Positions 22,301 to 40,400 of a stretch of DNA of 64,000 nucleotides are shown here, piece after piece (position 1 is the first letter of the stretch; the number at the start of each line of letters is the position of its first letter). The notes below the pieces were generated by a model. It did no database searches, had not been told where the DNA came from, and saw nothing but the letters and a program-made list of their open reading frames with translations. A program made the translations under genes and the position numbers. Source of the DNA: Chloroflexia bacterium (lineage in GTDB: Bacteria > Chloroflexota > Chloroflexia > QHBQ01 > JADMIH01); the NCBI GenBank assembly GCA_035274425.1, contig DATEOC010000092.1:3562-67561 (forward strand), read 5' to 3'.

Positions 22301-23702
22301 GGCACTACAACAAGAGACTTCAGCCTACCCTGCGGATCGCATGCGTGCGTTCCTAAAGCTTAGTCGCCTAATCGCACCCACTGACTTGGCGAGTGCGCTT
22401 AGCTATAGTGAACAGGCTGTAGAGGTAGCGAATAACTCCGATGAAGTGGCCGACACCGAGGTTGTCAAGGCTCTGGGGGAGCTCACCATAGCTCGGTACC
22501 TTTCGGACGAACTAGCAAGTACCTATGATGACTGGGAGTTAGCAGGCGAGAAGCTGTTGGGAGCGAAGGAACACACGGAAGACTGGAAGAGCACTTTCGT
22601 GATTTACGGTCACTGCGCTGGCTATTTTGCCCGATTCGCAATGACAGGTCATCCACCTGAAGCGATAGCCTCTGGAGAGCCATACGTAGCGCCTCAGCTT
22701 GGGATGTTTACCGGCCATGTGCCAGAACGTGCCCAGTATTACGATACCAAGACCAGCATACTCCATATCTCTTACCTTATGGCCAACCTGGCGATGTACG
22801 CAGGTGCAGTCGGTAAAGTAGAGCGCGTAATCGCCTGGTCTGTGCAAGGGTTTGACTTGGCGCGTGCTGCCGGCGAAACGCTGGCCGTATCACAGATGGG
22901 CTTTGACGTAGTACCAGCACTCCTTATCAACAACCGATTCGGTGAGGCCCTGGACACTGCACTGGCGACTGGCATAGGTGGGGTGGCAGTCAGGCTAGAT
23001 TACAGGAAGGACACGACATCAGTGAGAACCAGAATCGATGTCGATGAGGTGCTGGGGCCAAAGCCAAATGAGAACTGGGTAAATGCAGAACAGATAGCGG
23101 GTGAACTCGGCGTACTGCCCGCAGCATTCAGACTTGGGTCTATCGCCTTGAAGGACGCTGGGGAAGCACGCGATTGCGCTCAGGAAATAGCATCTCTGTG
23201 CCGACAGGTTGGTATCGAGGCAGCTGAACCTGCCTTCTGGAATACAGCGGCAGAGATTTTCGAGGAGTCTTTCGTAAGGCCAGTTGGGGCCAAGCGGCTG
23301 ATTGAGCGCCCATCTGCTACAGTCATTAAGGACCGGGTGTTGCACGCTGTTGCCTATATAGGAGCGTCATTACAGACTGATTGCATACCTTCTATGGCGC
23401 TGGAAGCGCACCTCGCCATTGCCTCCGCTGTGGAACTGCTCAGAAGCGCAGATCTGGTACACAGGCTCATCGTTACACCTTTCTTCAAGGAATACTGGCA
23501 ACGCTCGTTCGCACGCTCAAGGTTCCGCTTCAGAGCCCCAATAGTTGTCCAGCGCGGCCTCGAAGCCGCGGAGCAGGTGGGACTTGACGATCAGCCTCAA
23601 GCTGTACTGCGCGCCGTAGCTACTGGCCTAGATGTGCGAATCCCTACCGACCACTTTAACTGGTTGCACAAGAAAGTAGATTCAGGCGTCCCCAGGCCGT
23701 GA
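19389..23702 (+). CDS. STAND/AAA-like P-loop NTPase (1437 aa) with a possible N-terminal PD-(D/E)xK/Cap4-like nuclease domain and a long C-terminal helical sensor region. Avs-like architecture.
   Basis: Walker A 'GSIGSGKTLLAALSAY' and Walker B 'LVIIHDLPRL'. The N-terminus 'GFVYQVDLTILRWLELGDGQYLELECGEDIDLITAD...LLEQVKRY' resembles a D...(E/Q)xK nuclease core. The gene lies 105 bp downstream of the NACHT gene on the same strand. Confidence 0.7.
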   Translation: MLQQQFVTERDRDAWATIAGFVYQVDLTILRWLELGDGQYLELECGEDIDLITADLHGGAHSGQLGQRLLEQVKRYQSPISLRSRVALEALASAVEHLANNPGLDLAFQFTTTAAISREQPSPLPDRIPAITAWHEVRAGTLTSDLQGRILQGIRAILTGASRPANLNENTWQRFKTFAAEASQEDLLSFVKRFEWSTGAADPEEVMLQVRAVLIERGAAKDTTEAWSLYQRLFHHVFRVLTSPDLKRLSSADLSEQLTQRTLTADELALVEGVHSILADLTSRVQSLERVQEEQVRSIEAIQSQVAGLAERYGIYPAQVRQLPRSFRELPPIPPAVSRRSKTVANLLDTIQQFTWTALHGSIGSGKTLLAALSAYERGQWEAWIKLSTNQLEQASIDLDEVCYELIGDFSPGPWQDLYRKACTEVGTGKLVIIHDLPRLNGNDPLTERLVLLTLTAAKAGLKLLTTSPFRPPNRVRTALRGTTLRIVAVPAFTDEEVLEVLERHGAPREVLNDKFISAMSSLTDRHPQRLASLAQYLEQRRWQITDEVVEGLLRSEYSQELDRETTHALISKIDDVDSRELLYRLGLSKRSFSLEDVRAIASLERVIDRPTERLDALVGVWVQPETDVLMSVSPLITALDGRDLTANTYRACHKTFGRRIMAKGTITASQLIDALTHFNEAQEYDQAALTLSVGLTELSRLEPTAPDAGLSAVWANTPLPEQMNLGLRIYARLRQILARTQRGLQTAHAVRDLDALIDRAGEEEIWALSAVMGLTPIAETSPIPAANLYKYLLRVVRHFDTAMLPNGTPLRDVVPIRPELIIWWHVVNIRTVDDMFAWLNTFEHFSDEERGRVLADDLAVEGCLWVASRVWLTECEKPAEKQEWAPILAALKELEQRARGLGVELLWASAVHSQIIILAESCHDLPAAKKQAEEALAEASVDPRVQFLIREAIGKQGTLPEAEAIEWLRSALQQETSAYPADRMRAFLKLSRLIAPTDLASALSYSEQAVEVANNSDEVADTEVVKALGELTIARYLSDELASTYDDWELAGEKLLGAKEHTEDWKSTFVIYGHCAGYFARFAMTGHPPEAIASGEPYVAPQLGMFTGHVPERAQYYDTKTSILHISYLMANLAMYAGAVGKVERVIAWSVQGFDLARAAGETLAVSQMGFDVVPALLINNRFGEALDTALATGIGGVAVRLDYRKDTTSVRTRIDVDEVLGPKPNENWVNAEQIAGELGVLPAAFRLGSIALKDAGEARDCAQEIASLCRQVGIEAAEPAFWNTAAEIFEESFVRPVGAKRLIERPSATVIKDRVLHAVAYIGASLQTDCIPSMALEAHLAIASAVELLRSADLVHRLIVTPFFKEYWQRSFARSRFRFRAPIVVQRGLEAAEQVGLDDQPQAVLRAVATGLDVRIPTDHFNWLHKKVDSGVPRP

Positions 23703-24212: not shown

Positions 24213-25124
24213 ATGTCTATTGCATTCCAGACCCCCTACGGCACATCCTTCCACGGCCCCGCAGAGGTGATCCTTACCTCGCCTCAAGCTGAACAGTACC
24301 AAAAGCAGGTACGCCTTATTTTCACCTCACCACCCTTTCCTTTGAACAGGAAGAAGAAGTACGGTAATTTGAACGGGCAAGCATACATCGACTGGCTAGT
24401 GAGCTTTGCTCCCCTCTTCAAAGACCTTCTCATGGCGGATGGCTCTATAGTCATAGAGATGGGGAATTCATGGGAGCCCGGCCGGCCAATCATGTCTACA
24501 CTTGCCTTGCGCGCGCTCCTCGCATTACAGGAACATGGTCAATTCCACCTATGCCAGCAGTTCATCTGGCATAATTCGGCACGCCTCCCAAGTCCAGCGC
24601 AGTGGGTCAATGTTGAACGCATCCGCCTCAAAGACGCGTTCACATACTTATGGTGGCTTTCGCCCACCGAGCGTCCTAAGGCGGATAATCGCCGTGTGCT
24701 CAAAGAATACAGCGACTCCATGCAGAAACTGTTAGTCTCTGGGCGCTATAATGCCGGAAAGAGACCATCTGAGCATCACATTGGCCAAGCTTCCTTTCTC
24801 AACGATAACAACGGCGCTATTCCCTCAAACGTGATTACGCTTGCCAACACCCAGGCATCCAGTGATTACCTGAACTACTGCCGGGAGAACGGCCTCCAAC
24901 CGCACCCAGCCCGTATGCCGCCTGAACTAGCGAGCTTTTTCATTCGGTTCTTGACCGACCAAAACGATTTGGTGTTAGATCCGTTCGCTGGTAGCAATAC
25001 AACGGGGTCAGTAGCCGAAAGTCTCCAACGCCGATGGATTGCCGTTGAAGCGAGCAATGAATATATAGCGGGCTCCAAAGGACGCTTCAATCTCGATCCT
25101 GCCATATCCCAAAGCACCAGCTGA
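24213..25124 (+). CDS. Beta-class amino DNA methyltransferase (N4-cytosine or N6-adenine), with motif IV before motif I.
   Basis: Motif IV 'FTSPPF' sits near the N-terminus. Motif I 'VLDPFAGSNTTG' sits near the C-terminus. SPPF is typical of N4mC/N6mA MTases. Confidence 0.85.
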   Translation: MSIAFQTPYGTSFHGPAEVILTSPQAEQYQKQVRLIFTSPPFPLNRKKKYGNLNGQAYIDWLVSFAPLFKDLLMADGSIVIEMGNSWEPGRPIMSTLALRALLALQEHGQFHLCQQFIWHNSARLPSPAQWVNVERIRLKDAFTYLWWLSPTERPKADNRRVLKEYSDSMQKLLVSGRYNAGKRPSEHHIGQASFLNDNNGAIPSNVITLANTQASSDYLNYCRENGLQPHPARMPPELASFFIRFLTDQNDLVLDPFAGSNTTGSVAESLQRRWIAVEASNEYIAGSKGRFNLDPAISQSTS

Positions 25125-25166
25125 TCTCGCTAGGACTCAAAGCCGCAGTGTTCTGTTGGCCCTACC

Positions 25167-25222
25167 TCTAGACTAAGGTACCATGGGACTAAGGACGATG
25201 TACCATTCATCCTTAGGTCTAG
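25167..25222. promoter_or_regulatory. Stem-loop downstream of the MTase gene, with an ~11-bp stem (ctagactaagg / ccttaggtctag) and an internal ggtaccatgg palindrome.
   Basis: The inverted repeat is seen directly in the sequence. No U-tract follows, so it may be a structural or regulatory element rather than a classic terminator. Confidence 0.3.
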
Positions 25223-25614
25223 TATCGCTTGGGAACATGATTGGGTGGAGCAATCCCACGGCGTCATACCTGTTATGGACAAGGGGTATTATAGAATAGG
25301 CTAATTTGGCCTATTGACTTAACGCATACCAATAGTGTAGCATTACCCATAGTTGGAGTTGTACCTCTTTTCATTATCGCCACTATATTCCTGCGTTCCT
25401 GTGCTGACATAGACAGAACGCACCTTTGTTGCTGCCCTGGAAAAGGCGGCATTAACGTCTGGAACGGCACGACTGATCAATAGCCTAGTCAGTGTTGTGG
25501 TGGTCAGTTTTTGATCATTGTCGTTTTCTAACGCAGCAAATCCTGCTACCTCATGGACCAGATGGACCAGATAGGACAAGGACATTCAAGGAGCCTTCAG
25601 GAGATAAATAGTAG

Positions 25615-27333
25615 ATGGCGCGCATGTATCCCCAGAACTTACCAGGCAGCGTCGAAAGCAAAGCGGAGGAGATCCTTTACCAGGAACTTCAAGCACAACT
25701 CCCCGATGGTTACACTGTACTCTACAGCGTTAAATGGCTCATGCGCGATCGAAAACGGCATGACAACGATGGCGAGATTGATTTTCTCATAATCCACCCT
25801 GATCTAGGTGTGCTCGTCTTGGAAGTCAAGGGGGGCCGCATACGTGTAGAGGGCCCAAGCGGTCACTGGTATACGATAGACAAGCACGACCAAGAGCATC
25901 TTATCAAAAACCCGTTCGATCAGGCTACGAAGAACCTGCATGCTCTGAGGGACAAGCTCGATGAAGCTCCAGCCACTCAGCCCTATTCGTATCGCATGCA
26001 GCATGCCGTAGCCTTCCCCAATGTGATCCTGGGGCAAACTAACATCGGTCTTTACGGCGATCGCGAGCTGATCATCGACTCCACAGATATGCCTCGGCTG
26101 GAAATGGCGATCCGCCGTATTATGGGGACCCCAAACAAGCAGCCCGTGTTGAGCAGCTTGGCCCTACGTGCCTTCGTCAATACCCTGCAACCTACGATGG
26201 AGATCAGCCGCATCGGTATCGGCACACACGTGCTCGAATCGGAAAGACAAATCGCTATCCTCACCGAGAACCAGTTCCGCATCCTCGACTATCTAGCCCT
26301 GCATCCACAGGCCCTGATATCGGGCTGCGCAGGCTCAGGTAAGACGATGCTCGCAATGGAAAAGGCCCGCCGTCTTGCCAACGAAGGCTTCACGGTACTG
26401 TTTACCTGCTTCAACAGAAACCTCGCACAGTGGGTGCGCTCACGCTTCCAGAGCGATCCTAACACCATTAGCGAGCGCATTTACGTAAATCACTACCATG
26501 GACTGGTGATCGAATTCTGCAAGAAGTCCGGTATAGCTCTCCAGCAAGAGATCGAAGCTCTGGACCCGCAGGCACTATCTGAATATCTCAACGATACGCT
26601 GCCAGAGAAGATGCATGAAGCCAATACAAAGCTCAGGTTGCGCTTCGACGCCATCGTAGCTGATGAGGGGCAAGACTTCGCTGAAATGTGGTGGGTAACA
26701 TTGCTAGACCTGCTCAAGGACAGAGAGCAGGGTGTCTTCTACATCTTCTATGACCCCAATCAACGTATTTATGGGCGAGACTTGTCTCTCCCCTTCACCG
26801 ATGCGCCTTTCACCCTCAATACTAATTGCCGTAACACCGCGACAATACACAACGAGGTACAGCGCTTCTACCAGGGTACTCCACAGCCCTTATCAGGTGG
26901 GCCAGCCGGCATCAAACCAGCAATTATCCCTATACTGCAAACAGGGGAGAGAGAAGCGTTGCGCAAGGCTTTTACCCACCTCTTCACCGAGGAGAAAGTC
27001 CCACCCCGTAATGTAGTCGTACTCACTCCACGAGGGCTACGTACTAGTGAGTTCAAGGAGGGGACCACGGTCGGCACTTACACTCTAACTTGGGGCGAGG
27101 CTGGACCTGGCCAGGTGCCGATACGCTCGATCTACAGTTATAAGGGCCTCGAAAGCCCCGTCGTCATCCTCGCTGAACTCGACAAGATCGAGTCTCAGCA
27201 GCAGGACTATCTCATGTATGTGGCTCTATCTCGCCCTAGGAACCATCTCATAGTGCTGGGCCGCTTGCCTCAACCTCTCGCTGAGCCCGTGACGATCAGA
27301 CCTGGGGATCGATATGCATATGGAGAACTCTAA
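25615..27333 (+). CDS. NERD (nuclease-related domain) fused to a UvrD/PcrA-like SF1 helicase.
   Basis: N-terminal NERD signature 'GEIDFLIIHPDLGVLVLEVKGG'. Helicase Walker A 'ISGCAGSGKTMLAMEKA' and motif II 'IVADEGQDF'. The stop lies 2 nt before the start of the next gene. Confidence 0.85.
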   Translation: MARMYPQNLPGSVESKAEEILYQELQAQLPDGYTVLYSVKWLMRDRKRHDNDGEIDFLIIHPDLGVLVLEVKGGRIRVEGPSGHWYTIDKHDQEHLIKNPFDQATKNLHALRDKLDEAPATQPYSYRMQHAVAFPNVILGQTNIGLYGDRELIIDSTDMPRLEMAIRRIMGTPNKQPVLSSLALRAFVNTLQPTMEISRIGIGTHVLESERQIAILTENQFRILDYLALHPQALISGCAGSGKTMLAMEKARRLANEGFTVLFTCFNRNLAQWVRSRFQSDPNTISERIYVNHYHGLVIEFCKKSGIALQQEIEALDPQALSEYLNDTLPEKMHEANTKLRLRFDAIVADEGQDFAEMWWVTLLDLLKDREQGVFYIFYDPNQRIYGRDLSLPFTDAPFTLNTNCRNTATIHNEVQRFYQGTPQPLSGGPAGIKPAIIPILQTGEREALRKAFTHLFTEEKVPPRNVVVLTPRGLRTSEFKEGTTVGTYTLTWGEAGPGQVPIRSIYSYKGLESPVVILAELDKIESQQQDYLMYVALSRPRNHLIVLGRLPQPLAEPVTIRPGDRYAYGEL

Positions 27334-27335
27334 AG

Positions 27336-30239
27336 GTGAAATTACGCTTCAGCACAGACTCGTACCGAGACATCCTTCTTAGAGTTGCCAAGGACAACAG
27401 CCTCTATCCGCGGCCAGACTGCGAACCCTGGTTGCAGGAGATAGCCACGGCATTCCGCAATGATCTGGGCCTATTAGCGCTCCACAGCATCTCTGGCCTT
27501 TCTGAGCAGTTACCAGGACAGCCCCTGGTGCGCATCCCACTTTGTGCGGTGGACAACCTCATTCTCCTGCTCACTCGCGACGCGGTGCAGTCACGCCGTC
27601 ATATAGGCATTGCACTGCCAACCGGTACGGTGATGCTGCCGATGCTCATGATCTGCAAGACCCTCCTGGGCGACCTACTAAGCCAGCAGGAGATGCTCAC
27701 CGATCCACACCGCCCTCTTAGTTTGAAGGAGCGCGGCGGAATTCTCTTGGTCAGCCCGGATACAGAGATGCGGACGCGCTACTTCAGCATGCGCGTCGGC
27801 GAGGCAACTGTAGATAAGGTATACCCAGCGTGCAGGATGCGCCCCGACGGCAGTGTAGCTCCAATCACTGCTTCTCCTGAGGGCGTGCTTTCGGTTTGTT
27901 TTTTCCTCGCTCATTTGAAGCGATTGCCCGACCCGGGGGAGGTGAAGTTCAAGCCCGCCGTCGTCATCCTCGACCTCACCCATGACCACTGGATTGACCG
28001 ACTCGAAGATATCATCGGCTGGTGTACTCGGCTTCACGACACACAGGGTGAGCCAACGACGATCATTGCCATCCTCCCGCTCGGCGATAGACCAATGCGG
28101 GAGGCACTTGCTCGCCAAGACATTCCCACATTCCCACTCAATGCAGACGCCATAAACAGTATTGTAGAGGGCTTCTCCTCAATCGCGCCCCCTTCTACAG
28201 CTATCGAGCGCGAAGCATATAGCACATGGTCTTTCAGCTCGTTTGCGCTCGAAAAACCCCTGGAGCGCGCTCACACTATATATTGCGTGCCGGAGCAGGC
28301 CGCAAGTGATGTGGTAGAGATAGTCACAGATATTTACCAGGCCCTCGATAGCGCCGATAACCTAAATGACCGTCATGTTCACTCAGGAAGACATCCCGAC
28401 TTGCGCTTGGCCTCTTGGCTTGTAGGAACTTTGCTACAATTGCCTGTGCCTGCACAGTGGTACGAGCAGCATGCCTTCCTAGCAGGCAATCGCCAAACCC
28501 TCAAGAAGTTGATCGGCAGCATTGGCACCGGACCCCACAGCAGCCTTAATCGTGAAATAGCTCCGATTCTGCAAAGCGTGCGCGGCCAACTTGACCTGCT
28601 GTACATGCGCCTCTCCACAGCTAATCCGAAGAGCGAAGCGTTCCTACGCTACTACCAAGACTACCTGGCGCCGAGGCTAGCAGAGGAAAAAGAGGTAGTC
28701 GTGCTGGCGCGCAACGACGTCGTTGCGCGCGCACTATGGCCTTGGCTGCAAAGCGAGGGCGTACCAATAGAGCACCAGGCTAGACTGCGTATTCTCACAT
28801 ATAAGCAGATAGACGGTCGGGAGCTCTACGATATTGTAGTTGCTACCGGCCCCTGGCCTTATCGCTATCGCTGGCAAGTGGGTGGACGACTAGGACGCAA
28901 CATCGATTTCATCCTCTACGATCGCGAGGAGGGTATCCTAAAGCAGCAGGTAGCATACTTCTACGGCCAGCGCGCCCGTAAGTACCTAGAACGGGAACGC
29001 TTTTCGATCTTGCAGGGTTACAGCAACTTGCATGCTATTCCCCCAGATGAAACCCTAGCAGCTGACGATATAGCATTGATCCTCAACAGGATTGGACGCG
29101 TACCGACATATGACGAGCTGGCTGATGCCCAGGTTTCGACACCAGGAACATCGAAGCTGGGCTTGGAGGAAGAAGACGAGCAGGATGGAGACCTGCCTTC
29201 TATCTTCAGCGTTCACAGGTTTGATCCTGCCACCTTCACAATCAGGCCTCCACTCCCGCGGAGCAATCTTGGAGAGGCATTTCAAGAGCAAGGGGAAGCA
29301 TCGAGCGCCACTAGCTCAGCGCTTATATGGCGGGAGGATCGAATAGCAGAAATGGACAACCAGCCTGATCTCGGAGACGCAGATGCTCCGATTAATGCGG
29401 AGCATCTAGGTGGCCCTACAGAAGCCTGCTTACGCCTGACCATGCAGTTGCTGTCAATGGGTCCACCGGATGAGGAAGGTGAGGTCAGATACCTATACCT
29501 AAGCTCAGAGGCCAGCACCGAGTGCTATCTGCCTGGCGGAGAGGAGGCCCTAGCTTCCATACTTAACGATGAGATCGAACCAGGCTACATTATCATACGA
29601 ACCGACCAAGAAGATCGAGACTCCCTGTTCGACCGCATCATTCAAATGGCCGATGCGCAACCCACTATGAAGTACCTAAAGGTATGGCGCACCTACTGGT
29701 TAGAGGCGGCGGATAGCCTGGTGCGCAAAGGGGCAATGGGGCAGGCGGTGCGCGGAAGCTACAAGCAGTTACAGACACAGCTCGCGCAGTCAGGGGTGCA
29801 AGTCACCACCATGACAGTACGCGATTGGGTGCTTGGGGCACGCATCGGCCCCAGGGACATCAAGGCCGTCAAAGCGGTTGGTGCCTTGACGCAACATCCT
29901 ATGCTTATGCAATACCCTGATCAAGTGGATGCAGCTTTCAAGCAAATTCGGGTCATCCACCAACTGCTTGGGCGGCGGATTGCAGCCACGCTACAGAGGC
30001 TCGGCAAAGTGGCCAGTCAAGGCCTGAACCGGACCAGTGGAAGAAATGATTATACATCTTCGAGCGGCATCGTGAAGAGAGGAAAGCGAAATCTCAATAT
30101 AGACCCCGCATTGGCGGTGCCAATAGATGATCTATTGGACCTGCTGGAGTTCTGGGAAGTATTGGAAGTGAGCCAGGATCCTTGTCAAGTGCCTAGCAGC
30201 CGTGTAGGAAAGCTTCTCACGCGCTCCGTGTTCGGCTGA
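27336..30239 (+). CDS. Large hypothetical protein (967 aa), operonic with the NERD-helicase and upstream of the DrmA-like helicase. Candidate DrmE-like component.
   Basis: Long ORF with genome-typical composition and no recognisable catalytic motif. Its position matches DrmE in class-2 DISARM (inference). Confidence 0.6.
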   Translation: MKLRFSTDSYRDILLRVAKDNSLYPRPDCEPWLQEIATAFRNDLGLLALHSISGLSEQLPGQPLVRIPLCAVDNLILLLTRDAVQSRRHIGIALPTGTVMLPMLMICKTLLGDLLSQQEMLTDPHRPLSLKERGGILLVSPDTEMRTRYFSMRVGEATVDKVYPACRMRPDGSVAPITASPEGVLSVCFFLAHLKRLPDPGEVKFKPAVVILDLTHDHWIDRLEDIIGWCTRLHDTQGEPTTIIAILPLGDRPMREALARQDIPTFPLNADAINSIVEGFSSIAPPSTAIEREAYSTWSFSSFALEKPLERAHTIYCVPEQAASDVVEIVTDIYQALDSADNLNDRHVHSGRHPDLRLASWLVGTLLQLPVPAQWYEQHAFLAGNRQTLKKLIGSIGTGPHSSLNREIAPILQSVRGQLDLLYMRLSTANPKSEAFLRYYQDYLAPRLAEEKEVVVLARNDVVARALWPWLQSEGVPIEHQARLRILTYKQIDGRELYDIVVATGPWPYRYRWQVGGRLGRNIDFILYDREEGILKQQVAYFYGQRARKYLERERFSILQGYSNLHAIPPDETLAADDIALILNRIGRVPTYDELADAQVSTPGTSKLGLEEEDEQDGDLPSIFSVHRFDPATFTIRPPLPRSNLGEAFQEQGEASSATSSALIWREDRIAEMDNQPDLGDADAPINAEHLGGPTEACLRLTMQLLSMGPPDEEGEVRYLYLSSEASTECYLPGGEEALASILNDEIEPGYIIIRTDQEDRDSLFDRIIQMADAQPTMKYLKVWRTYWLEAADSLVRKGAMGQAVRGSYKQLQTQLAQSGVQVTTMTVRDWVLGARIGPRDIKAVKAVGALTQHPMLMQYPDQVDAAFKQIRVIHQLLGRRIAATLQRLGKVASQGLNRTSGRNDYTSSSGIVKRGKRNLNIDPALAVPIDDLLDLLEFWEVLEVSQDPCQVPSSRVGKLLTRSVFG

Positions 30240-30297
30240 CATTTCTAACCTTTAGCAAGGTTATTCTGGAAGAAGTAATTCCCGAAGGATATTTCAT

Positions 30298-33200
30298 ATG
30301 GATCAAAGCCAAGAGCTACGCTTTGTAAACTACCTATTTGACCGAGTGAGAGGCGGCCTGACAGGGGGATCGGAAGACGAGATCGTCGGCGCAGGCCCTC
30401 GAGAGCAGTTCCACGCTGGAGTTCTACTGCCAATGCAGATTGGGCTACCCAGCAATGGATCAGCGCCTAGTTCCTCAGGAGGGGATAGCCTCAGTGGGTT
30501 CATGGAGGCGGCTGGGAATGTGCCCACAGAGGCGCGGGTCCTAAAGGTTGACACCGACTCTTCGATGGGCATAGATTTCCAGGTGCGCCTGCCTGAAGGT
30601 AGCGGCGAATTCGTGCTGAGAATACAGCCACGCTTCAGTGTCTATTACGCCGTATTTCCCACTTACCAGGAAGTAATAGCCCATCAGTACGCCCTTCAGG
30701 AAGCCGCTCCAGATGAAGAACAGATAGCGAATGGTGCCGTCGGGGGTGCCGAGATTAACGATAGTGCTGATGTGGTGCTAGCAGACGGGGAGAGCCAGCA
30801 GGTAGAACCCGATCTGGACTTGGTCAAGCCCGCGGTTGCCGATATACCACACCAGTTGGCTGATGAGGTTGACCGTTCCTTCACAACGGATACCGTGCGT
30901 GAGGTCGAGGCCCATGATGACACCGTCAGCCTACCTCGCAAGTTCCGGCGTAAATCTGTCGAGCTTCCAGTGCTTGAGATTCCGGTTAGCGTGCGGCGGC
31001 TGGGCGCATCGCTGGAGATACGCGATCCCTTTACTGAGGTGCTAGCCGATCTGCGCTCAGCAGTGCTGAACGATCCAGACTTGTGGCGACATCTGGGCAA
31101 GCCTTCGGACGGCGCACGGGAACTGCCTGGACACAGGGTGCTTGTGGATGAGCAAAGTTATATGGCGGCCCTTGGGAGTTCGGCAGTAGGTGAAGTAGCT
31201 CTACCTGCTTGGCGCGCATACCTCTCAATTTCGGGGGCGTCCGTCCTAGCAGGCGCGGTGGCCCAACCAGGTGCTCGTACCGATCTACGAGCAGTTCGAG
31301 GTGATGGGCAGACACAGACAGAGGTCCAGACACCAAGACAGGAACAGGTATTGCGGCTCAACGTAGCACTGGTCAACGCCACGCCAGGACTCTCACCTAC
31401 CGATAGCCGCCGCGCCCAACTCGAAGAAGGTGCCCTCTTCAACAGTGGCCTCTCAGTCGAGATAAATGAGGCGGAAATCGTACCGTTTGTGTTCCATGGC
31501 ACGCCCAAAGACTATCGCTACAATCGCGATTTCCCAGCCCTGGGGAGCAATTGTGTGGCTTTGTCGGACCCTAATAACCCCCAAAGGCTCTACACTGAGA
31601 CGGTGCCTCTATATATTCAGCCTTGGTATCGGACGCGCGATCCTCTCCCTGTAAAGTTCGCTGAGCTTGATATTTCGCCAGGCAATGACCCGCTGGGCAA
31701 GCTGGGGAGCATCACTTCAGCTATGGACGATTACTTGGCCGAATGGGACGACTATCTAAAGGAGCGCGCCCCGCATGAGCTGGACCGGGACCAAGTGGCG
31801 GTTTGCCTGCGGGATCGCGAAGCGTTTCGAGTTGAAATAGATCGCTATAAGCTCGGCTTGGCTGCTCTGAGGCGCGACGCCGACCTGCTGCGCGCCTTCC
31901 GGCTCATGAACACAGTATTTGAGCGAACCGGGGAGCAAAGGAAGCCGCCTATTCGCAGCTGGCGTCTTTTCCAAATTGTCTTCATGGTAATCCAGCTACC
32001 CGCCTTGGCAGCGCGCGAGCACGATGTGACCACTGGTGATGAGTACAGTCAAGGGCTCAAGGCCGCCCTCGACAAGGTCGATGTGCTTTGGTTCCCTACG
32101 GGCGGCGGCAAGACGGAGGCATACCTGGGGCTGATCGCCACGACCCTATTTTATGATCGGCTCCGAGGCAAGGACCGGGGCCTCACCGCATGGATGCGCT
32201 TCCCTCTGCGGATGCTCAGTCTCCAGCAGTTAGAGCGTCTGGCGCAGGTAGTCGCGCAGGCTGAGATGCTAAGGGCCGCCGAGCCAGACCTTGCCACAGC
32301 AGGCAGCCCCTTCTCGATAGGCTATTACGTTGGGTCCAACAACACACCCAACATCCTCCGCGAGAACGCCCAAACCTCGGGAAGTCTGACTAGCAGAGAT
32401 TGGTCTAAGCAGCAGATAATCAGGAGTTGCCCATTCTGCAGAAGTAATGCTGGTGTCAAATTCGATAGAGAAAAGTGGCGCTTACTTCACTATTGCTCAA
32501 ACTCGCACTGCTACTCTAACACCGCCAATTCGCTAGGCGAATTCAAGGGCAGTCTGCCGATATTCGTTGTAGATAACGAAGTCTATCGCTACCGGCCTTC
32601 GGTGCTGGTCGGAACTGTTGATAAGTTGGCCATCCTAGGTTTCCAGAAGAACTTCGCTCACCTATTTACGTCAGTCAACGAGCGTTGCCCCACGCATGGT
32701 TACCTCTCCTTCGGGCAGTGCTTGGAAAGCACAAGCGGTGGACCGTGCACGCACAAGCCCAGAGAATATGTACAGCTCCGGCCCGAAAAGGATCCAGTGC
32801 CCGCACTCCTGATCCAGGACGAATTGCACTTGCTCAAAGAAGAACTGGGCACGTTCAACGCCCATTATGAGGGCTTTCTGCACCACTTAGCGATCAAACA
32901 GGGTCTAAAACCTCCCAAGGTGTTAGCCGCTACGGCGACTATCGAATCATATGAAGAGCAGATCGCCCATCTCTACCTCAAGGAGGCCAATCGCTTCCCG
33001 CAGCCCGGCTGGCGCATCGGCGAGTCTTTCTACGCCACGTCCACACCACTTGTCCAGCGCCGACTGTACACAGGCATACTCACCCACCAGCGCAGCCCTG
33101 AAACCACTGCGCTCAGAGCGCTATTCCTTTACCACCAAGAAATATTGAGGATGAAGGCAGATCCTGGGGCTGCTATCGCTCAACTGGGTCTCGAAGACGT

Positions 33201-34119
33201 ATCGGAGGAGTACTTCTCCGGCTTCCTTCACCTGTATGACCTCTCCCTTACTTATGTGAACCGCAAAGCCACAGGGGGCAATATCGCGTTTGGCCTGTAC
33301 CAGTCCGTTGCGCCACAGCTCAGTCAAATCCTTCGCCAGCCAGACTTGCATCTCGGCGTAGAGATGCTTACCGGAGACAACACTATGACGGAAGTAGGCG
33401 GGGCCATCGAGCGAATAGAGCGGGAACGCAACGACACAGACGATGAACGACTAGATGCCCTCATAGCCACCAGTCTGATCAGCCACGGTGTGGATCTGGA
33501 ACGGATCAACTTCCTATGCATGGTCGGTATGCCTTCTAGGTACGCTGAGTACATTCAGGCCTCGAGCCGGGCCGCTCGCAGCCACGTTGGGTTGGTGCTG
33601 GTATGCTTCAAGCGTGGCGACCTGCGCGAGCGGTCTCAGTATCACTACTTCCTACCCAACCATCGCTACTTGGATCGGCTGGTCGAACCAGTGGCCATCA
33701 ATCGCTTCTCATCGTTTGCACCTAAGCGCACGGTGCCGGGTCTGCTCGTGGGTATGCTCCTCTCTTACTATAGTGGAGTGCTATTTAAGGGGGGCCGCAT
33801 CAAGAAACCGCTGGACAACATGAAAGAACTACAAAGCATGATTAGCTCGGACAACATCACTTTCCAACAGTTGCACCAGGACCTTGAGGCGATAATCGGC
33901 GCTCATTACTCCCGACTGACGCCAATGCAACGTGACTATCTTGCTGAGGCTATCAAAGAAGCGTTAGAGCAGAACTGGGACGCGCTTCGTCGCTCCTACG
34001 ACAGCCGCATCGGTGACGTAATCCATCCGATGCTCAGCTTCCGCGACGTAGATGAGACGATTAGCTTTGTCGCAGACGGCGCTGCGGCTTCGTTCGTAGA
34101 GCGCATCACTGCGGGTTAG
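30298..34119 (+). CDS. DrmA-like DEAH-box SF2 helicase (1273 aa) of the kind partnered with DUF1998 proteins.
   Basis: Motif I 'WFPTGGGKTEAYLG', motif II 'LIQDELHLL', motif III 'LAATATIESY' and motif VI 'YIQASSRAARSHVG'. A ~590-aa N-terminal region of unknown function precedes the helicase core. Confidence 0.75.
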   Translation: MDQSQELRFVNYLFDRVRGGLTGGSEDEIVGAGPREQFHAGVLLPMQIGLPSNGSAPSSSGGDSLSGFMEAAGNVPTEARVLKVDTDSSMGIDFQVRLPEGSGEFVLRIQPRFSVYYAVFPTYQEVIAHQYALQEAAPDEEQIANGAVGGAEINDSADVVLADGESQQVEPDLDLVKPAVADIPHQLADEVDRSFTTDTVREVEAHDDTVSLPRKFRRKSVELPVLEIPVSVRRLGASLEIRDPFTEVLADLRSAVLNDPDLWRHLGKPSDGARELPGHRVLVDEQSYMAALGSSAVGEVALPAWRAYLSISGASVLAGAVAQPGARTDLRAVRGDGQTQTEVQTPRQEQVLRLNVALVNATPGLSPTDSRRAQLEEGALFNSGLSVEINEAEIVPFVFHGTPKDYRYNRDFPALGSNCVALSDPNNPQRLYTETVPLYIQPWYRTRDPLPVKFAELDISPGNDPLGKLGSITSAMDDYLAEWDDYLKERAPHELDRDQVAVCLRDREAFRVEIDRYKLGLAALRRDADLLRAFRLMNTVFERTGEQRKPPIRSWRLFQIVFMVIQLPALAAREHDVTTGDEYSQGLKAALDKVDVLWFPTGGGKTEAYLGLIATTLFYDRLRGKDRGLTAWMRFPLRMLSLQQLERLAQVVAQAEMLRAAEPDLATAGSPFSIGYYVGSNNTPNILRENAQTSGSLTSRDWSKQQIIRSCPFCRSNAGVKFDREKWRLLHYCSNSHCYSNTANSLGEFKGSLPIFVVDNEVYRYRPSVLVGTVDKLAILGFQKNFAHLFTSVNERCPTHGYLSFGQCLESTSGGPCTHKPREYVQLRPEKDPVPALLIQDELHLLKEELGTFNAHYEGFLHHLAIKQGLKPPKVLAATATIESYEEQIAHLYLKEANRFPQPGWRIGESFYATSTPLVQRRLYTGILTHQRSPETTALRALFLYHQEILRMKADPGAAIAQLGLEDVSEEYFSGFLHLYDLSLTYVNRKATGGNIAFGLYQSVAPQLSQILRQPDLHLGVEMLTGDNTMTEVGGAIERIERERNDTDDERLDALIATSLISHGVDLERINFLCMVGMPSRYAEYIQASSRAARSHVGLVLVCFKRGDLRERSQYHYFLPNHRYLDRLVEPVAINRFSSFAPKRTVPGLLVGMLLSYYSGVLFKGGRIKKPLDNMKELQSMISSDNITFQQLHQDLEAIIGAHYSRLTPMQRDYLAEAIKEALEQNWDALRRSYDSRIGDVIHPMLSFRDVDETISFVADGAAASFVERITAG

Positions 34120-34172
34120 GGCAATTCGGCAAAGACAGTAGATGCCACACCTACTTTCTAGGAGTTCCTATT

Positions 34173-36143
34173 ATGCCTGAGATGCACAGAGGCAAGAGCC
34201 AAGTGCTCTTCCGTTATACTCCATACGCGATGTTTAGGTACAATGAGACGAACGCCTGGTGCGAAGTTACCTCGATTCCGATGGCTAACACACGATCCCT
34301 GTCCGAAGGTGTTGCGGAGGCCCTTTACCAGCTCCTGCACGCCTGGGACGCTATAGGCAGCGACAATTTCCCCGACCCGCGTCTCTTCCCTAACAAATAC
34401 GAAGTGGGGGAGCCTTATCAGGTGCATTACACGCTGCGGCCCTTGGTCTTTGTATGCAAAGTATGCAAGCGCGTGCAGTGGTATTCTGATTTGGACCAAC
34501 TCAGTCGCTACAATTACAATCTCAACTGTCGCCAGTGTAAAGGCGTTCGCACCCTAATGCAGATACCCTATATCTACATACACGAGTGCGGCAGAGCCGA
34601 GAACGTTTTCATCCCGAAGCACCCCACTGATCACGTTATCACTCTCAACAACCGGGGCCGCTTCCAAGAATCGAATTGGTACTGCCAAACGTGCAGGAGG
34701 CCATTGACCAAGCCCGGCACCCAGGGATTAGGCAAGCGGGCGTGCCAGTGTGGGAAGAAAAAGCTACAGCGCGGTACCACGCTGCAAGATCCAGCTGTGC
34801 ATTACAACCACACCCTTAGTTTGGTAGATACTGAGGATCCTCTGTTAGCAGGAGCTGGTCTAAATCCGCAACTAGGCGAGAATCTGTTAGCAGGCCTACT
34901 GCGCACCCCGCACTACAACCCAGCCGATTTCAAAGATCTGTTGCAGCCTGCCCCGGGTGAGGAGGAAACCGAAACAAAACGGGAGCAAATGCGCCAGGAC
35001 CTCAAGGCCACTGGGCTGACCGATCCCAACCAGATTGAGATGCTCATAGGGATCATGCTCGCGCAGGTAGCATCTCCAGTTGCCGACACGCAACGCAGGC
35101 TGCGTAAAGAGGTGCGGGATCTGCTCACGGAGGAGTCGCCCCTCATTGGTGAGGCGGCAGCCAGTCGTCAACTGCGCGAATATCTGTTTGTGCGGGACCA
35201 TCCACGCATGCAGGCGTCGAGACTTTCCGATTTGTTGCGGCAGGCGACCGAACAGGGCGATACCCACGCAACCGAGCGCTACACAGAGGATTTAGCCCTC
35301 AGTGAGAGTATAGGCTTTGCCGATCTACGTCTCCTGGAGAAGTTTCCATTACTGCTCGCTGCCGTTGGCTACAGCCGGGTACAAGTGTCTCCCGCGCCGG
35401 GCACCACTACCGCTCTCAGACCGTTTGATGCTAATAAGCCGAAAATCCCCATCTACGCCATCCGAAGCACTACTGAGGCATTCATGTTTGAGATCGATCC
35501 CTGGTGGGAGGCCGCTTGGCTACTGGAGAACGATTGGGCCGAAGCGCCAAATGCGCCGTTCACCAGTGTGCAGGAGTTGCGCGCCTGGCTCTTGAGAATG
35601 AGCGATTACTTGTTGCGATACAACGCGGCGCACCTCGAACAACTGACATGGGAGAGGGAGAAGAACCATCCTGTGCCTGAGACTGCTGTTGCCTGTCGGT
35701 TTGGTCTGCTCCACACAATCAGCCATATGCTCACAATTGCAGCGACAACGCAGGTAGGCTTCGAGGCGGACAGCTTAGCCGAGTATCTTTTTCCGGTCAG
35801 TAGCGCAGGCATCGTATATGCTACAGGCCACCAAGAGTTTACGCTCGGCGGTATCGTGTCGGCTTTCAAGTTGAACCTCGGCATGTGGCTGAGTGCCACT
35901 TATGAGGCTGCGCAGCGCTGCATTTACGACCCTCTCTGCCGATCCAGAGGCAGCGTGTGCCATGCCTGTGGTTACCTGCGCTTCAGTTGCCCCCACTTCA
36001 ATCGCACTGTGAGCAGAGCCTTTCTGCTAGGAGGTCCTGTGACAGGTCTCCAACAGGATGTTGTAGGATACTGGAGCCCCAGGACTCATGAACGCTCGCT
36101 CCGCCTAAAGCAGGAAGCAGGTCTTCTTTCATTGATGTCCTGA
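34173..36143 (+). CDS. DUF1998-like (DrmB/MrfB-family) multi-zinc-ribbon protein.
   Basis: Several CxxC pairs (CKVCKR, CRQCKG, CQTCRR, CQCGKK). The C-terminal cluster 'CIYDPLCRSRGSVCHACGYLRFSCPHFNRTVSRAFLLGG' is typical of DUF1998. It lies directly downstream of the DEAH helicase. Confidence 0.7.
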   Translation: MPEMHRGKSQVLFRYTPYAMFRYNETNAWCEVTSIPMANTRSLSEGVAEALYQLLHAWDAIGSDNFPDPRLFPNKYEVGEPYQVHYTLRPLVFVCKVCKRVQWYSDLDQLSRYNYNLNCRQCKGVRTLMQIPYIYIHECGRAENVFIPKHPTDHVITLNNRGRFQESNWYCQTCRRPLTKPGTQGLGKRACQCGKKKLQRGTTLQDPAVHYNHTLSLVDTEDPLLAGAGLNPQLGENLLAGLLRTPHYNPADFKDLLQPAPGEEETETKREQMRQDLKATGLTDPNQIEMLIGIMLAQVASPVADTQRRLRKEVRDLLTEESPLIGEAAASRQLREYLFVRDHPRMQASRLSDLLRQATEQGDTHATERYTEDLALSESIGFADLRLLEKFPLLLAAVGYSRVQVSPAPGTTTALRPFDANKPKIPIYAIRSTTEAFMFEIDPWWEAAWLLENDWAEAPNAPFTSVQELRAWLLRMSDYLLRYNAAHLEQLTWEREKNHPVPETAVACRFGLLHTISHMLTIAATTQVGFEADSLAEYLFPVSSAGIVYATGHQEFTLGGIVSAFKLNLGMWLSATYEAAQRCIYDPLCRSRGSVCHACGYLRFSCPHFNRTVSRAFLLGGPVTGLQQDVVGYWSPRTHERSLRLKQEAGLLSLMS

Positions 36144-36291: not shown

Positions 36292-36897
36292 CTATGAGCC
36301 TAGACGCGCTGCTTGGGCGCACTCAGCGCGCAATTCCTTTATGTACAGAGCCAGCGGATTGGGCCATTTGTTTAAGCACAGCACTGGCTCTAGTTCCTGG
36401 ATCACCACGGTCTCTAGACTTTCGAGTTCTTTGATGCGGCCCTTGTACTCAGGCAACGCGCATATCCCCACTTCAAGGCTTGTTACCATCCACCTGGTCA
36501 AACTTTCCTCGCCTTGACGCTCGAATCGATAGTTGTAATAATCTGCCTCGCTCCTCCCTCGGCCCCGCGGAATGGGCACGAGCTGCAAGCTCATCGCCTT
36601 ATTGAGGAGCGCTCCCAGCGAGCGGCGCACTGTCGAGCGGCCCGTCTTCGTAGAATCAAAGTGTGTATCGTGCTGTCTTTCCGATAGGTCGCTGGAGACG
36701 CCGATATAAATGAGACCGCCTGGTGGTGCGTATTGGCTGAAGAGCGCCCTTATTTCAGGCGGGCAATCTTTGGGTAGAGGCAAGCTAAGGCCTGCCCTAA
36801 GAAAGAAGGCGTAGAGACCAGGCTCTGATGGCACACGTAGGCCAACAATAGTAACTCGTGTCTTTTCCAGGGTACCAATAATATCTTCAACAGTCAT
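36292..36897 (-). CDS. Hypothetical protein with a GIY-YIG-like motif, possibly a nuclease.
   Basis: 'PGLYAFFLRAG' followed by 'LIYIGVSSDLSERQ'. The spacing is longer than in canonical GIY-YIG, so the call is tentative. It overlaps the upstream gene by 11 bp. Confidence 0.4.
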   Translation of the reverse strand: MTVEDIIGTLEKTRVTIVGLRVPSEPGLYAFFLRAGLSLPLPKDCPPEIRALFSQYAPPGGLIYIGVSSDLSERQHDTHFDSTKTGRSTVRRSLGALLNKAMSLQLVPIPRGRGRSEADYYNYRFERQGEESLTRWMVTSLEVGICALPEYKGRIKELESLETVVIQELEPVLCLNKWPNPLALYIKELRAECAQAARLGS

Positions 36898-37945
36898 TAT
36901 CCGCCCCCGCCTGCTCGCCCAACTCTAGTGCACGTGACGAATCACCTGCTAATAAACTCTCCTGTTCCACAACAGCAGGTTGATCGCCATCTTCTTGAAT
37001 TACAATGTCCCTGGCCATCCGCAGACTCTCCTTGACGAAGTCCTCCACAAACCGCATCTGCTCATCTGTGCTCATCGAGAAGAACCCAGCCTCCTCGGCC
37101 GACAAATCGATGACATGCTCCCACCTCAGGCGGCCTCCTTCGGTCCACAACCTCCCGCGACCCAGAGCTTCGGCCTTCGCTCTGTCGATGCGATCATTTA
37201 AGGTCCGGAACCTCAGCAGGAAGGCTTCGTGTAAGTACACTCCCACATAATACTGGCCCGTTCCGATCTTACAGCCCCACCAGTTATATTCTAAGCTTTT
37301 CCCAAGATCCAATCCTGCGCTTGTCAGCGCCTTGTGCAGCATGCTATATAGACTGGTCAGCGACCTCGCCCCGGCTGCCATTTCACTTCCTATACGCTCC
37401 ATGGTCATCCTCCTCCCACGTAAAAACCCCAGAAATTGCTCAACCAGGAAGACACTTGAAGGCTGCTTTACCAATTCTGCGCGCATCGCGTTTTCGAGCC
37501 ACTGCGCTACCTGATACCAAAGGACGGCGCTATCCGGCTGCTGGGACTCGGGAGCTTGCTCCTCGTAGCGGGTAAGAAGCACCAAATAGGTTCTCGCGAC
37601 ACCGCTGGTTTGCAGGATCTTCCTGTAATTGAGCAGCTGCTCCACTCCAAGGGTCGATTCGACCTTGACTTCCACGTATACCAGCAGCCCTGGCGCGCTG
37701 ATCTCTATGTCAGGACGCTTTCCGCCAACTGTTACCTGCGTGCTGACCTTAGTGCTGGTCGCGTCCCAATCCGCCGCGGGGACGGCGCCCCCTGTCAGAT
37801 TTGCCAACATAATTGACGCCGCACTCCCGTCAAACTGTAACAGGTGCTGGAGCAGGTAGGCGAACAACTCCGTCACGAAGTTTTCCTCCTGACCCCACGC
37901 CCACTTTTGCAGCCTCAAGAATAAGTTGTTTCTTGTATCTACCAT
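36887..37945 (-). CDS. PD-(D/E)xK nuclease superfamily protein.
   Basis: Core 'GGKRPDIEISAPGLLVYVEVKVES' (D...E.K) follows an N-terminal helical segment 'FVTELFAYLLQHLL', as in PDDEXK families. Confidence 0.5.
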   Translation of the reverse strand: MVDTRNNLFLRLQKWAWGQEENFVTELFAYLLQHLLQFDGSAASIMLANLTGGAVPAADWDATSTKVSTQVTVGGKRPDIEISAPGLLVYVEVKVESTLGVEQLLNYRKILQTSGVARTYLVLLTRYEEQAPESQQPDSAVLWYQVAQWLENAMRAELVKQPSSVFLVEQFLGFLRGRRMTMERIGSEMAAGARSLTSLYSMLHKALTSAGLDLGKSLEYNWWGCKIGTGQYYVGVYLHEAFLLRFRTLNDRIDRAKAEALGRGRLWTEGGRLRWEHVIDLSAEEAGFFSMSTDEQMRFVEDFVKESLRMARDIVIQEDGDQPAVVEQESLLAGDSSRALELGEQAGADNDC

Positions 37946-38992: not shown

Positions 38993-39397
38993 TCAAACTC
39001 GAACTCTTCGGTAAGTGAGCATCCAATACTCTGATGAGACCGTAATGAAATCACTATCTACTACCTGTAAGACCGCACTAACAAATGATCGATGTCGTGA
39101 ATTCGGACCACCGCTAAATTGAACCTGGACTGGGAACGTGTACCCGCTGTACACACCTGTCCAGGTGATTTCTCCAGATCTAATACAGTCATCCCCTGTG
39201 ATTTTGACAGCCTGCAATTTATTGCCTATAAGCTCTATCTTTATGAGCTCTGGGGATTCCGCGCCTCTGCATGTGTAACCATAACCCAGCCACAAACCGG
39301 TTAATTTTCCCACTAATAATGGTTTTTGTGGAGCCCCACAAGTGGGGCAGAAATTAGCTTCCGAACCGATTTGTGTGCCGCAGTTATGACAGAACAT
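38993..39397 (-). CDS. Zinc-ribbon domain protein.
   Basis: N-terminal 'FCHNCGTQIGSEANFCPTCGAP'. Confidence 0.5.
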   Translation of the reverse strand: MFCHNCGTQIGSEANFCPTCGAPQKPLLVGKLTGLWLGYGYTCRGAESPELIKIELIGNKLQAVKITGDDCIRSGEITWTGVYSGYTFPVQVQFSGGPNSRHRSFVSAVLQVVDSDFITVSSEYWMLTYRRVRV

Positions 39398-39416
39398 TAT
39401 TAGCCCTCCTTTCCTA

Positions 39417-40400
39417 TCATAATCTACAAAGCATGCTCCTGTAGCGCCTTCTTTTGAGCTTTCTTGGCGAGTTGGACATAGATAGTTGTTGTGTCGCCAA
39501 GCTCGCGTGTCCTAGCGTTTCCTGCACCGTCTTGAGGTCGGTTCCTCGCGCTACATGATGTGTCGCCATTGTATGTCTCAATGTGTGAACTGACGCGCCT
39601 TTGATGTCGGCCTCTTTCATGTAGCCAGCTACGATGTACTGGATCGCCCTGGCCGTCATTGGCGTCTTGAACTTTGATACGAATACCTCATCGAAGGGCA
39701 TTTTGGGCCGGGCCTTCAACCAGGCGGCCAGGACCTGGCACGCCTTGTAGTTCAAGGGGATGGTATCTACCTTGCCGCCTTTGCGCCTGACACGAGCTGA
39801 GCCGGTGTTATCAAGGTCGCGGGTGATGAGCGCAGGCAGTTCCAGATCGCCCACCGTGAGATTAGCAAGCTCCGACAGCCTCATGCCTGTTTGCAAAAGC
39901 ACTTCGATGATGGCTGCATCTCTGATGTTATGGCTGCACGCCCGGAGCAATCGCCGGTACTCGTCCTCCGATAAGAAGCGCGGCTCTCTCTTCTGCGCCT
40001 TCGGGGGCTTCAACCTGAGTGCCGGATTGCTCGATATTATCCCCTGGGGTTCAAGGAAGGAGAAAAAGATCTTTATAGTATGAGCTTTCCGATTGCGGGT
40101 TGAGGGTTTGTGGCCGCGCCGATCAAGCTCGGCCATGTACGCTTCGAGGTGTGGCAGAGTGACATCGGCAAGAGCGCGCACTCCCCGACCATCAAGGAAC
40201 TTCACCAGGTCGTGCAGGTCATTCGCATACTCGCCCCTGGTCCTGGCCGCCAAGTTCCTAGCAGGCATACCTACCACTTCAAATAAAGCCACAGCATGGC
40301 GCACTGTATCGCCCTCAGCGGAACCAATTGCTCCAAACTCCTCCATAATATCTCCTGGAATTGGCTCAAAACGGCTCATACATTGGCTGTTAAATATCAC
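39417..40400 (-). pseudogene. Tyrosine recombinase/integrase with a frameshifted extreme C-terminus. The catalytic-Tyr segment is out of frame.
   Basis: In frame: 'RHTMATHHVARGTDLKTVQETLGHASLA', then nonsense 'TQQLSMSNSPRK...'. Dropping a 2-nt 'ca' within the acacaacaac run (about 39486-39497) gives the canonical 'LGHASLATTTIYVQLAKKAQKKALQEHAL*'. Confidence 0.55.

Follow-up and report, generated by a model that had tools for sequence, protein, structure and literature searches.

A rare, apparently undescribed DISARM subtype from uncultured Chloroflexota, with a NERD-UvrD nuclease-helicase beside DrmE

We analysed a 64,000-nucleotide (nt) stretch of DNA from a Chloroflexia bacterium (assembly GCA_035274425.1, contig DATEOC010000092.1, positions 3,562-67,561 of the forward strand; the whole stretch is called the window here). 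Five adjacent genes in the window represent a real, rare and apparently undescribed subtype of the anti-phage system DISARM from uncultured Chloroflexota. They encode a predicted N4-cytosine methyltransferase, a nuclease-helicase and the proteins DrmE, DrmA and DrmB. We consider it probable, at roughly 70%, that the five genes constitute one methylation-based anti-phage system that arose from a DrmE-containing, class-2-like DISARM by exchange of two of its parts. The genes are as follows.

24213-25124, plus strand: beta-class DNA methyltransferase, M.PvuII-like, 303 amino acids (aa)
25615-27333, plus strand: NERD-UvrD nuclease-helicase, 572 aa
27336-30239, plus strand: DrmE-family protein, 967 aa, GTG start
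30298-34119, plus strand: DrmA, a YprA-family superfamily 2 (SF2) helicase, 1273 aa
34173-36143, plus strand: DrmB, a divergent DUF1998/MZB zinc-module protein, 656 aa

The original prediction for this stretch had placed five genes at these coordinates on one strand, and all five open reading frames (ORFs) proved to be exact and on the plus strand. The intergenic gaps, from 5' to 3', are 490, 2, 58 and 53 nt, and recomputing the last three returned the values first given for them. All five ORFs are full length and every catalytic motif is intact. A sigma-70 scan yielded 14 promoter-like sites against 7.4 expected, and a terminator scan revealed no terminator after the methyltransferase gene. 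The 490-nt spacer between the methyltransferase and NERD-UvrD genes was not conserved with the closest related locus, L001, and we therefore propose no regulatory element there. No Rfam families or tRNAs were found anywhere in the 64-kb window.

DrmA and DrmB were identified by matches to DISARM-specific profiles and not to MrfA. DrmA, foreseen as a DrmA-like helicase, matched the PADLOC DrmA model at 4e-132 and the Serratia DrmA chain in the Protein Data Bank (PDB; 7s9v_A) at 1.7e-63 across the helicase core (residues 553-1158). Its best NCBIfam model was that of the short type, DISARM_DrmAS (389 bits, cutoff 950). The Walker A motif GGGKT (602-606) and the DELH motif (841-844) were invariant in 9 homologues. 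DrmB, a separate ORF 53 nt downstream of DrmA, matched PADLOC DrmB at 1.5e-32, NCBIfam DrmB_fam at 1.5e-15 (under cutoff) and Serratia DrmB (7s9v_B) at 1.5e-8 over residues 492-619, a region that spans the cysteine cluster. Five of its cysteines (Cys583, Cys589, Cys596, Cys599 and Cys606) were invariant in 9 homologues. The expectation of a DUF1998 protein was borne out by these three matches but not by Pfam itself: PF09369 (DUF1998/MZB) aligned over nearly its full length (model positions 2-79 of 80, residues 517-599) with an E value of 0.038, but its 15.1 bits fall short of the gathering score of 24.2. The DrmB assignment is the weakest of the five, yet the DrmB-specific evidence for it is clear and good. 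Both proteins also matched PHROG families without an assigned function (DrmA, phrog_22462 at 2.9e-90; DrmB, phrog_29393 at 3.9e-7), so DrmAB-like pairs are also found on viral or proviral contigs.

The N-terminal part of DrmA (residues 1-560) was modelled with a predicted local distance difference test score (pLDDT) of 58 and a predicted template modelling score (pTM) of 0.46, which is too poor for domain assignment. The only significant Foldseek matches of this model were to Serratia DrmA (E value 3e-4). Residues 136-206 (nt 30703-30915, 71 residues) were predicted to be disordered and are strongly acidic, with 18 D/E against 3 K/R. The trigger loop of Serratia DrmA occupies residues 176-232 (PMC9142583), and by analogy the acidic loop is, speculatively, a candidate auto-inhibitory trigger loop at a comparable position.

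The 967-aa protein was correctly anticipated to be DrmE-like. It matched Pfam DrmE_C at 1.4e-14 and NCBIfam DrmE_fam at 128 bits, above the cutoff of 80, and is labelled 'DrmE family protein' by NCBI in a Chloroflexia bacterium metagenome-assembled genome. Its GTG start lies 2 nt after the NERD-UvrD stop. The protein is predicted to comprise a two-lobe, SF2-helicase-like N-terminal part (~1-570) and the DrmE_C domain (~744-886). It has no Walker A motif, and at the Walker B position the sequence LDLTHD (212-217) lacks the glutamate. DrmE is predicted to have an SF2-like fold and to be ATPase-dead, and it probably serves as a non-catalytic adaptor between DrmAB and an effector. Among 5.8 billion proteins, 26 DrmE relatives were found at 90% clustering; these were 43-63% identical by BLASTP and almost all metagenomic. 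A DrmE profile run against 1.84 billion representatives recovered 428 relatives at E values of at most 0.001 and 70 at no more than 1e-30, of which the clade accounts for only three full-length 50%-identity clusters. DrmE is 913-980 aa long in the clade compared to ~860 aa in the sister loci described below.

The neighbourhoods of DrmE relatives and ten further metagenomic loci were compared with the five window proteins by tblastn. The module recurs in about 18 related loci from metagenomes, with DrmE homologues of 43-66% identity. The commonest gene order is NERD/UvrD-DrmE-DrmA-DrmB-methyltransferase (L003, L004, L007, L013, L014 and L018); in L015, L017, L019 and L022 the 5' end is cut off and DrmA-DrmB-methyltransferase is visible. 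The methyltransferase instead comes first in the window and in L001, its closest relative. A test of whether the exact gene order is co-conserved in related genomes had been suggested with the original prediction: the five genes co-occur in many independent metagenomic loci, and the methyltransferase-first order is a minority arrangement. Damaged copies were also seen. In L016 (2734-4910) and L020 (1056-3556), the DrmA gene is broken up into two to four ORFs, with most of residues ~47-478 missing. In L019 (1-3432) the first ~400 residues of DrmE are absent, and an unrelated 386-aa ORF lies before it on the other strand. These damaged genes are decaying copies or assembly errors.

The clade is very rare. 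Its DrmA proteins form ~21 clusters at at least 55% identity, and the named hosts among the relatives are a Chloroflexia bacterium and a Ktedonobacterales bacterium. Two scans of 185,579 species-representative genomes, one with a DrmE alignment and one with a DrmA N-terminal alignment, detected no relative. A tblastn search of 72,556 plasmids returned nothing for DrmE, and for DrmA only relatives at 39% identity or less.

The 572-aa protein is the NERD-UvrD superfamily 1 (SF1) fusion that had been expected, with Pfam NERD (1.2e-14) followed by AAA_19, UvrD-helicase and UvrD_C_2. Its description as Nhi-like did not survive comparison with PADLOC. The best model was RTasNERD-Hel (9.1e-69, full length); C3a187 NERD+UvrD matched at 7.8e-31 and Nhi only at 8.2e-5. 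The Nhi match covers residues 216-264 only, the P-loop, and 'Nhi-like' is therefore a functional analogy rather than a statement of family membership. The PD-(D/E)xK catalytic-type residues D56, E70 and K72, the Walker A motif GSGKT (G240-T244) and the Walker B residues D350-E351 (DEGQ, 350-353) were all invariant in 7 homologues. Judged by these motifs, both the nuclease site and the SF1 motor are intact.

To assess the association of NERD-UvrD with the DISARM genes, we compared its position and divergence across the related loci. An intact NERD-UvrD gene lay directly 5' of DrmE in 10 of the 12 loci whose upstream side is visible, with junctions that vary between an overlap of 4 nt and a gap of 100 nt. 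Pearson correlations of pairwise identities between NERD-UvrD and the other proteins were 0.92 for DrmE, 0.96 for DrmA and 0.89 for DrmB, compared to 0.95-0.97 for DrmE, DrmA and DrmB among themselves; these values are indicative only, because the pairs are non-independent and several of the loci, coming from related samples, nearly duplicate each other. The wider NERD-UvrD family gave 1,739 matches at E values of at most 1e-10. Only ~28 clusters, those of at least 58% identity, correspond to the DrmE-adjacent context, and homologues at 43-50% identity stand alone, either surrounded by metabolic genes or close to a type III CRISPR locus. The adjacency, the co-divergence and the context-specific subclade indicate that NERD-UvrD has been recruited to the system and co-evolves with it, and is not a neighbour by chance.

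As had been noted from the start, the cluster has no gene for the PLD nuclease DrmC. The rest of the window has none either: searches by tblastn with DrmC proteins of two sister loci and by a scan for HKD motifs were both negative, and the ORFs flanking the five-gene cluster encode other domains. The in-clade loci likewise contained no PLD by tblastn with sister DrmC, by an HKD regular expression or by Pfam on the neighbours. An HKD-motif match in L018 lies out of frame within a 907-aa ORF and was rejected as due to chance. This absence had been counted among the unusual features of the cluster, which overstates it, since DrmC is dispensable and often missing from DISARM (PMC9142583). The informative fact is instead that a sister locus has a PLD gene and no NERD-UvrD. 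That locus, L023, has overlapping genes in the order N6_N4 methyltransferase-DrmE-DrmA-DrmB-PLDc_2; it is related to the window by 41% identity in DrmA (P0168), 39% in DrmB, 58% in the methyltransferase and 28% in DrmE. Its last gene contains an HxKx4D motif, and no NERD or UvrD was found in it. L024, with a DrmA 32% identical to that of the window, reads DrmE-DrmA-DrmB-PLDc_2, and the best plasmid relative, from Rubrobacter tropicus (NZ_CP045120.1; L025, 35% identical), likewise has a PLD-like gene at its end. These sister systems, of the N6_N4 methyltransferase plus DrmE type, thus differ from the window in having DrmC as the last gene and no NERD-UvrD. PLD was present and NERD/UvrD absent in 3 of 3 outgroup loci, and the in-clade loci had no PLD and mostly had NERD/UvrD; the two are therefore mutually exclusive in this sample. 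The simplest reading is that an ancestral system of N4-cytosine methyltransferase, DrmE, DrmA, DrmB and DrmC lost its PLD protein and gained a nuclease-helicase.

The methyltransferase matched Pfam PF01555 (N6_N4_Mtase) at 5.3e-37 and PADLOC MTase_II at 3.2e-88. Against PDB entry 1boo, the N4-cytosine methyltransferase M.PvuII, it aligned over residues 7-300 with an E value of 3.7e-76 and 45% identity across 288 aligned residues. Its TSPPF motif (residues 38-42) precedes DPFAGS (256-261), that is, motif IV comes before motif I, which is the beta-class order and agrees with the beta-class SPPF enzyme first proposed. The earlier assignment to an N4C/N6A type stands at the level of the family and can be narrowed: given its identity to M.PvuII, N4-methylcytosine is the expected mark, and the enzyme is probably an N4-cytosine methylase that marks self DNA. 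Such an enzyme is not peculiar to this clade, as an N6_N4-type methyltransferase also accompanies DrmE in sister loci. CAGCTG, the PvuII site, occurs 18 times in the whole window against 31 +/- 5.4 expected from dinucleotide-preserving shuffles, a mild depletion of uncertain meaning that proves nothing. No PvuII-type endonuclease was found adjoining the methyltransferase gene in the window.

Full-length methyltransferase orthologues were present in 15 related loci at 41-81% identity, all with SPPF and all within 3 kb of the core; that of the sister locus L023 also contains SPPF, and its gene overlaps DrmE. The gene lies on the opposite strand, no more than 3 kb from the core, in L002, L005/L006 and L008, and in L009 none was seen within the sequence in view. 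In L002 (1-9279, minus strand) the SPPF orthologue, 60% identical, does not accompany DrmE, DrmA and DrmB but heads a divergent operon with genes for PRTase-CE, an ORC/Cdc6-like ATPase, Thy1, a radical SAM/SPASM protein and a metallo-beta-lactamase-fold protein; the operon may be a DNA-modification or conflict system that shares the methylase. In L008 (15950-19432), on the opposite strand, the orthologue is flanked by genes for MTaX1-HNH and Mrr_cat proteins.

Among known systems the cluster is closest to DISARM class 2, because it contains DrmE and a short-type DrmA. Class 2, the Bacillus paralicheniformis type, consists of DrmE, DrmA, DrmB, DrmC and DrmMII (Ofir et al. 2018, cited through PMC9252829 and PMC11529989). 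The window shares with it the order DrmE-DrmA-DrmB on one strand, separate adjacent genes for DrmA and the DUF1998 protein, and a methyltransferase in the locus. In contrast, the methyltransferase is of the M.PvuII-like beta class whereas DrmMII is a C5 enzyme, and the PLD protein DrmC is missing while NERD-UvrD precedes DrmE instead. The PADLOC type II rule requires DrmA, B, C, E and MII together (PMC9252829), and of the PADLOC DISARM models only DrmA and DrmB matched the cluster. With class 1, represented by Serratia sp. SCBI (PDB 7s9v/7s9w), the helicase core and the DUF1998 cysteine cluster align, and the window DrmA likewise has an unstructured N-terminal loop at a position similar to that of the trigger loop. 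The cluster lacks the SNF2 protein DrmD and the PglX-like DrmMI of class 1; in their stead it has DrmE, together with a DrmA that resembles the short type more closely. No match to SNF2, DrmD or DrmMI was found among the five genes or their neighbours, in line with the first statement that the extra helicase is not of the SNF2 kind.

The fusion of an N-terminal NERD domain to a UvrD-type SF1 helicase is shared with the stand-alone nuclease-helicases Nhi, Nhi-like proteins, RTasNERD-Hel and C3a187. Unlike these, the window gene sits within a DISARM core with which it has co-evolved, and there is no reverse transcriptase nearby. A similar design principle, a YprA-family helicase operon with an added nuclease or nuclease-UvrD fusion, is seen in the RmuC-domain ShdA homologues embedded in Pseudomonas DISARM-like operons (PMC10270631) and in ARMADA type II, which combines a YprA helicase with ArmD, a RelE-UvrD fusion (10.1101/2025.09.15.676423). 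These differ from the window in having an RmuC or RelE rather than a NERD domain, in host clade and in YprA branch. The latter paper mentions 'many uncharacterized DISARM-like classes', and its text and the supplements that were examined do not mention NERD with DISARM, or DrmE. Our literature search found no paper linking DISARM with NERD, N4-methylcytosine or PF01555. The modularity of DISARM is already recognised.

Several observations weigh against reading the five genes as one system. Defence activity, N4 methylation and complex formation are predicted from sequence. DrmA and DrmB score under the NCBIfam equivalog cutoffs, as does DrmE (22 bits against a cutoff of 250 for DISARM_DrmE), and the PADLOC DrmE models miss the window protein, which also separates the cluster from class 2. 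The ATPase-dead status of DrmE is read only from its sequence and a model of pLDDT 74, the trigger-loop analogy is built on a low-confidence model, and the nuclease swap is drawn from only three PLD-bearing outgroup loci. Several loci, L016 and L020 among them, have the broken DrmA genes described above. The methyltransferase co-diverges poorly with the core (r 0.2-0.66), varies in position and strand, and belongs to other operons in L002 and L008. L002 and L008 also retain DrmE, DrmA, DrmB and the methyltransferase without an intact NERD-UvrD gene. In L002 tblastn with the window protein found none, and in L008 (6960-7340) a C-terminal piece of the gene survives immediately 5' of DrmE (query residues 442-568, 44% identity). 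NERD-UvrD may therefore be dispensable, or the copies in these two loci may be decaying.

The last of these points bears on the possibility that a stand-alone NERD-UvrD protein, working in the manner of Nhi, and a DrmC-less DISARM core are merely neighbours and that each works alone. The original prediction had offered such a composite of an Nhi-like gene and a DISARM core as its alternative. More distant NERD-UvrD homologues do stand alone, DISARM does function without DrmC (PMC9142583), and defence genes, including those of the window, cluster in islands. However, the subclade of at least 58% identity was found only directly 5' of DrmE, on the same strand and sometimes overlapping it. Its divergence tracks DrmE, DrmA and DrmB as tightly as these track each other, NERD-UvrD is absent exactly where PLD is present, and the L008 copy has decayed in place rather than being simply absent. 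We consider the composite unlikely in view of the adjacency, the co-divergence and the context-specific subclade. By contrast, the recurrence of the five genes in many metagenomic loci, the NERD-UvrD/DrmE adjacency and the co-divergence support the undescribed DISARM variant that had been proposed. Three outcomes had been named as speaking against that proposal, namely a last protein lacking DUF1998, a helicase of an unrelated group and five genes that never co-occur elsewhere, and the results above show none of them.

A less probable alternative places the methyltransferase outside the system, as an orphan or as half of another restriction-modification pair, so that the remaining proteins would act without methylation or against modified DNA. 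Its shifting position and strand, the non-conserved spacer in the window and its poor co-divergence with the core are what this arrangement would look like, and neighbours of HNH/Mrr-like type in L008 and of PRTase-CE and ORC-Cdc6-like type in L002, together with its absence from view in L009, point the same way. It sits uneasily with the SPPF orthologues close to the core in 15 loci, with the 58% identical gene that overlaps DrmE in the sister locus, and with the lack of an adjoining cognate PvuII-type endonuclease in the window. Lower still is the probability that the window copy is a decaying, non-functional remnant or that it acts in DNA repair like the MrfA/YprA helicases. The rarity of the clade, the broken DrmA or DrmE genes of some related loci and the repair helicases among the YprA relatives (10.1101/2025.09.15.676423) would fit such a role; the full-length ORFs with intact catalytic motifs, the DISARM-specific DrmA, DrmB and DrmE profile matches and the defence-island setting next to an integrase argue against it.

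That setting extends to both sides of the cluster, with NACHT, LmuA-like and nSTAND5-TPR genes and an integrase making the window a defence island. The genes concerned are as follows.

14691-19283, plus strand: NACHT-HEAT STAND NTPase, 1530 aa, upstream of the cluster
19389-23702, plus strand: protein with an LmuA/DUF4297 N-terminus, 1437 aa, PADLOC 4.9e-12
36292-36897, minus strand: GIY-YIG nuclease, PF20815 at 2e-16
36887-37945, minus strand: PD-(D/E)xK-like protein, PDDEXK_4 at 4e-4, PADLOC candidate PDC-S26 at 8.9e-8
38993-40400, minus strand: tyrosine integrase (327 aa) and a small zinc-ribbon protein
40800-44606, plus strand: nSTAND5-TPR protein, 1268 aa, adjoining the integrase

The first two, both very large ORFs directly 5' of the cluster on the same strand, probably represent one or two additional defence genes; the remaining ~1100 residues of the 1437-aa LmuA-like protein had no profile match. 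The GIY-YIG and PD-(D/E)xK-like genes overlap by 11 nt, are convergent with DrmB and look like a separate two-gene nuclease module. We considered this pair (36292-37945) as replacement nucleases for the system and rejected it because it is absent from the related loci, including the closest, L001. The integrase, the nSTAND5-TPR gene and the other genes together suggest that the island is mobile.

Assuming that the five genes do form one system, a mechanism can be proposed, each biochemical step of which we infer from gene content, motif integrity and comparative patterns. Judged by homology, the M.PvuII-like methyltransferase would place N4-methylcytosine on a short motif in host DNA, possibly one resembling CAGCTG. 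The DrmA motor and the OB-CON-DUF1998 zinc module of DrmB would form the core sensor and translocase. In Serratia, DrmAB recognises unmethylated DNA with a 5' overhang, and it may recruit a nuclease (PMC9142583); by analogy, the window DrmAB would load on incoming or replicating DNA that is unmodified and has single-stranded 5' overhangs, and the acidic loop of DrmA may act as an auto-inhibitory trigger loop. DrmE, itself non-catalytic, would couple DrmAB to NERD-UvrD, which would unwind and cut the target DNA in place of the PLD protein DrmC of the sister systems. The effector role is assigned to NERD-UvrD because of its phyletic exclusivity with PLD, its gene adjacency and its co-divergence with the core. 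More tentatively, and at somewhat less than even odds, the cluster may define a distinct 'class 3' DISARM, in which N4-methylcytosine is the self-mark and an ATPase-dead, SF2-like DrmE physically couples the DrmAB sensor to a dedicated, processive NERD-UvrD protein that is required for DNA destruction.

How DISARM stops phage after recognition by DrmAB is an unresolved question, and recruitment of an unidentified nuclease has been proposed (PMC9142583). If the 'class 3' reading is true, it would supply this missing effector step in a form that could be reconstituted in vitro. The subtype escapes both the PADLOC type I/II rules and the NCBIfam equivalog cutoffs, so that its frequency is underestimated when defence systems are counted in Chloroflexota or in soil and sediment metagenomes. 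Self-marking in DISARM would extend to N4-methylcytosine, and the clade offers a natural system in which to ask if a dedicated effector is essential to DISARM and by what means DrmE connects it to DrmAB.

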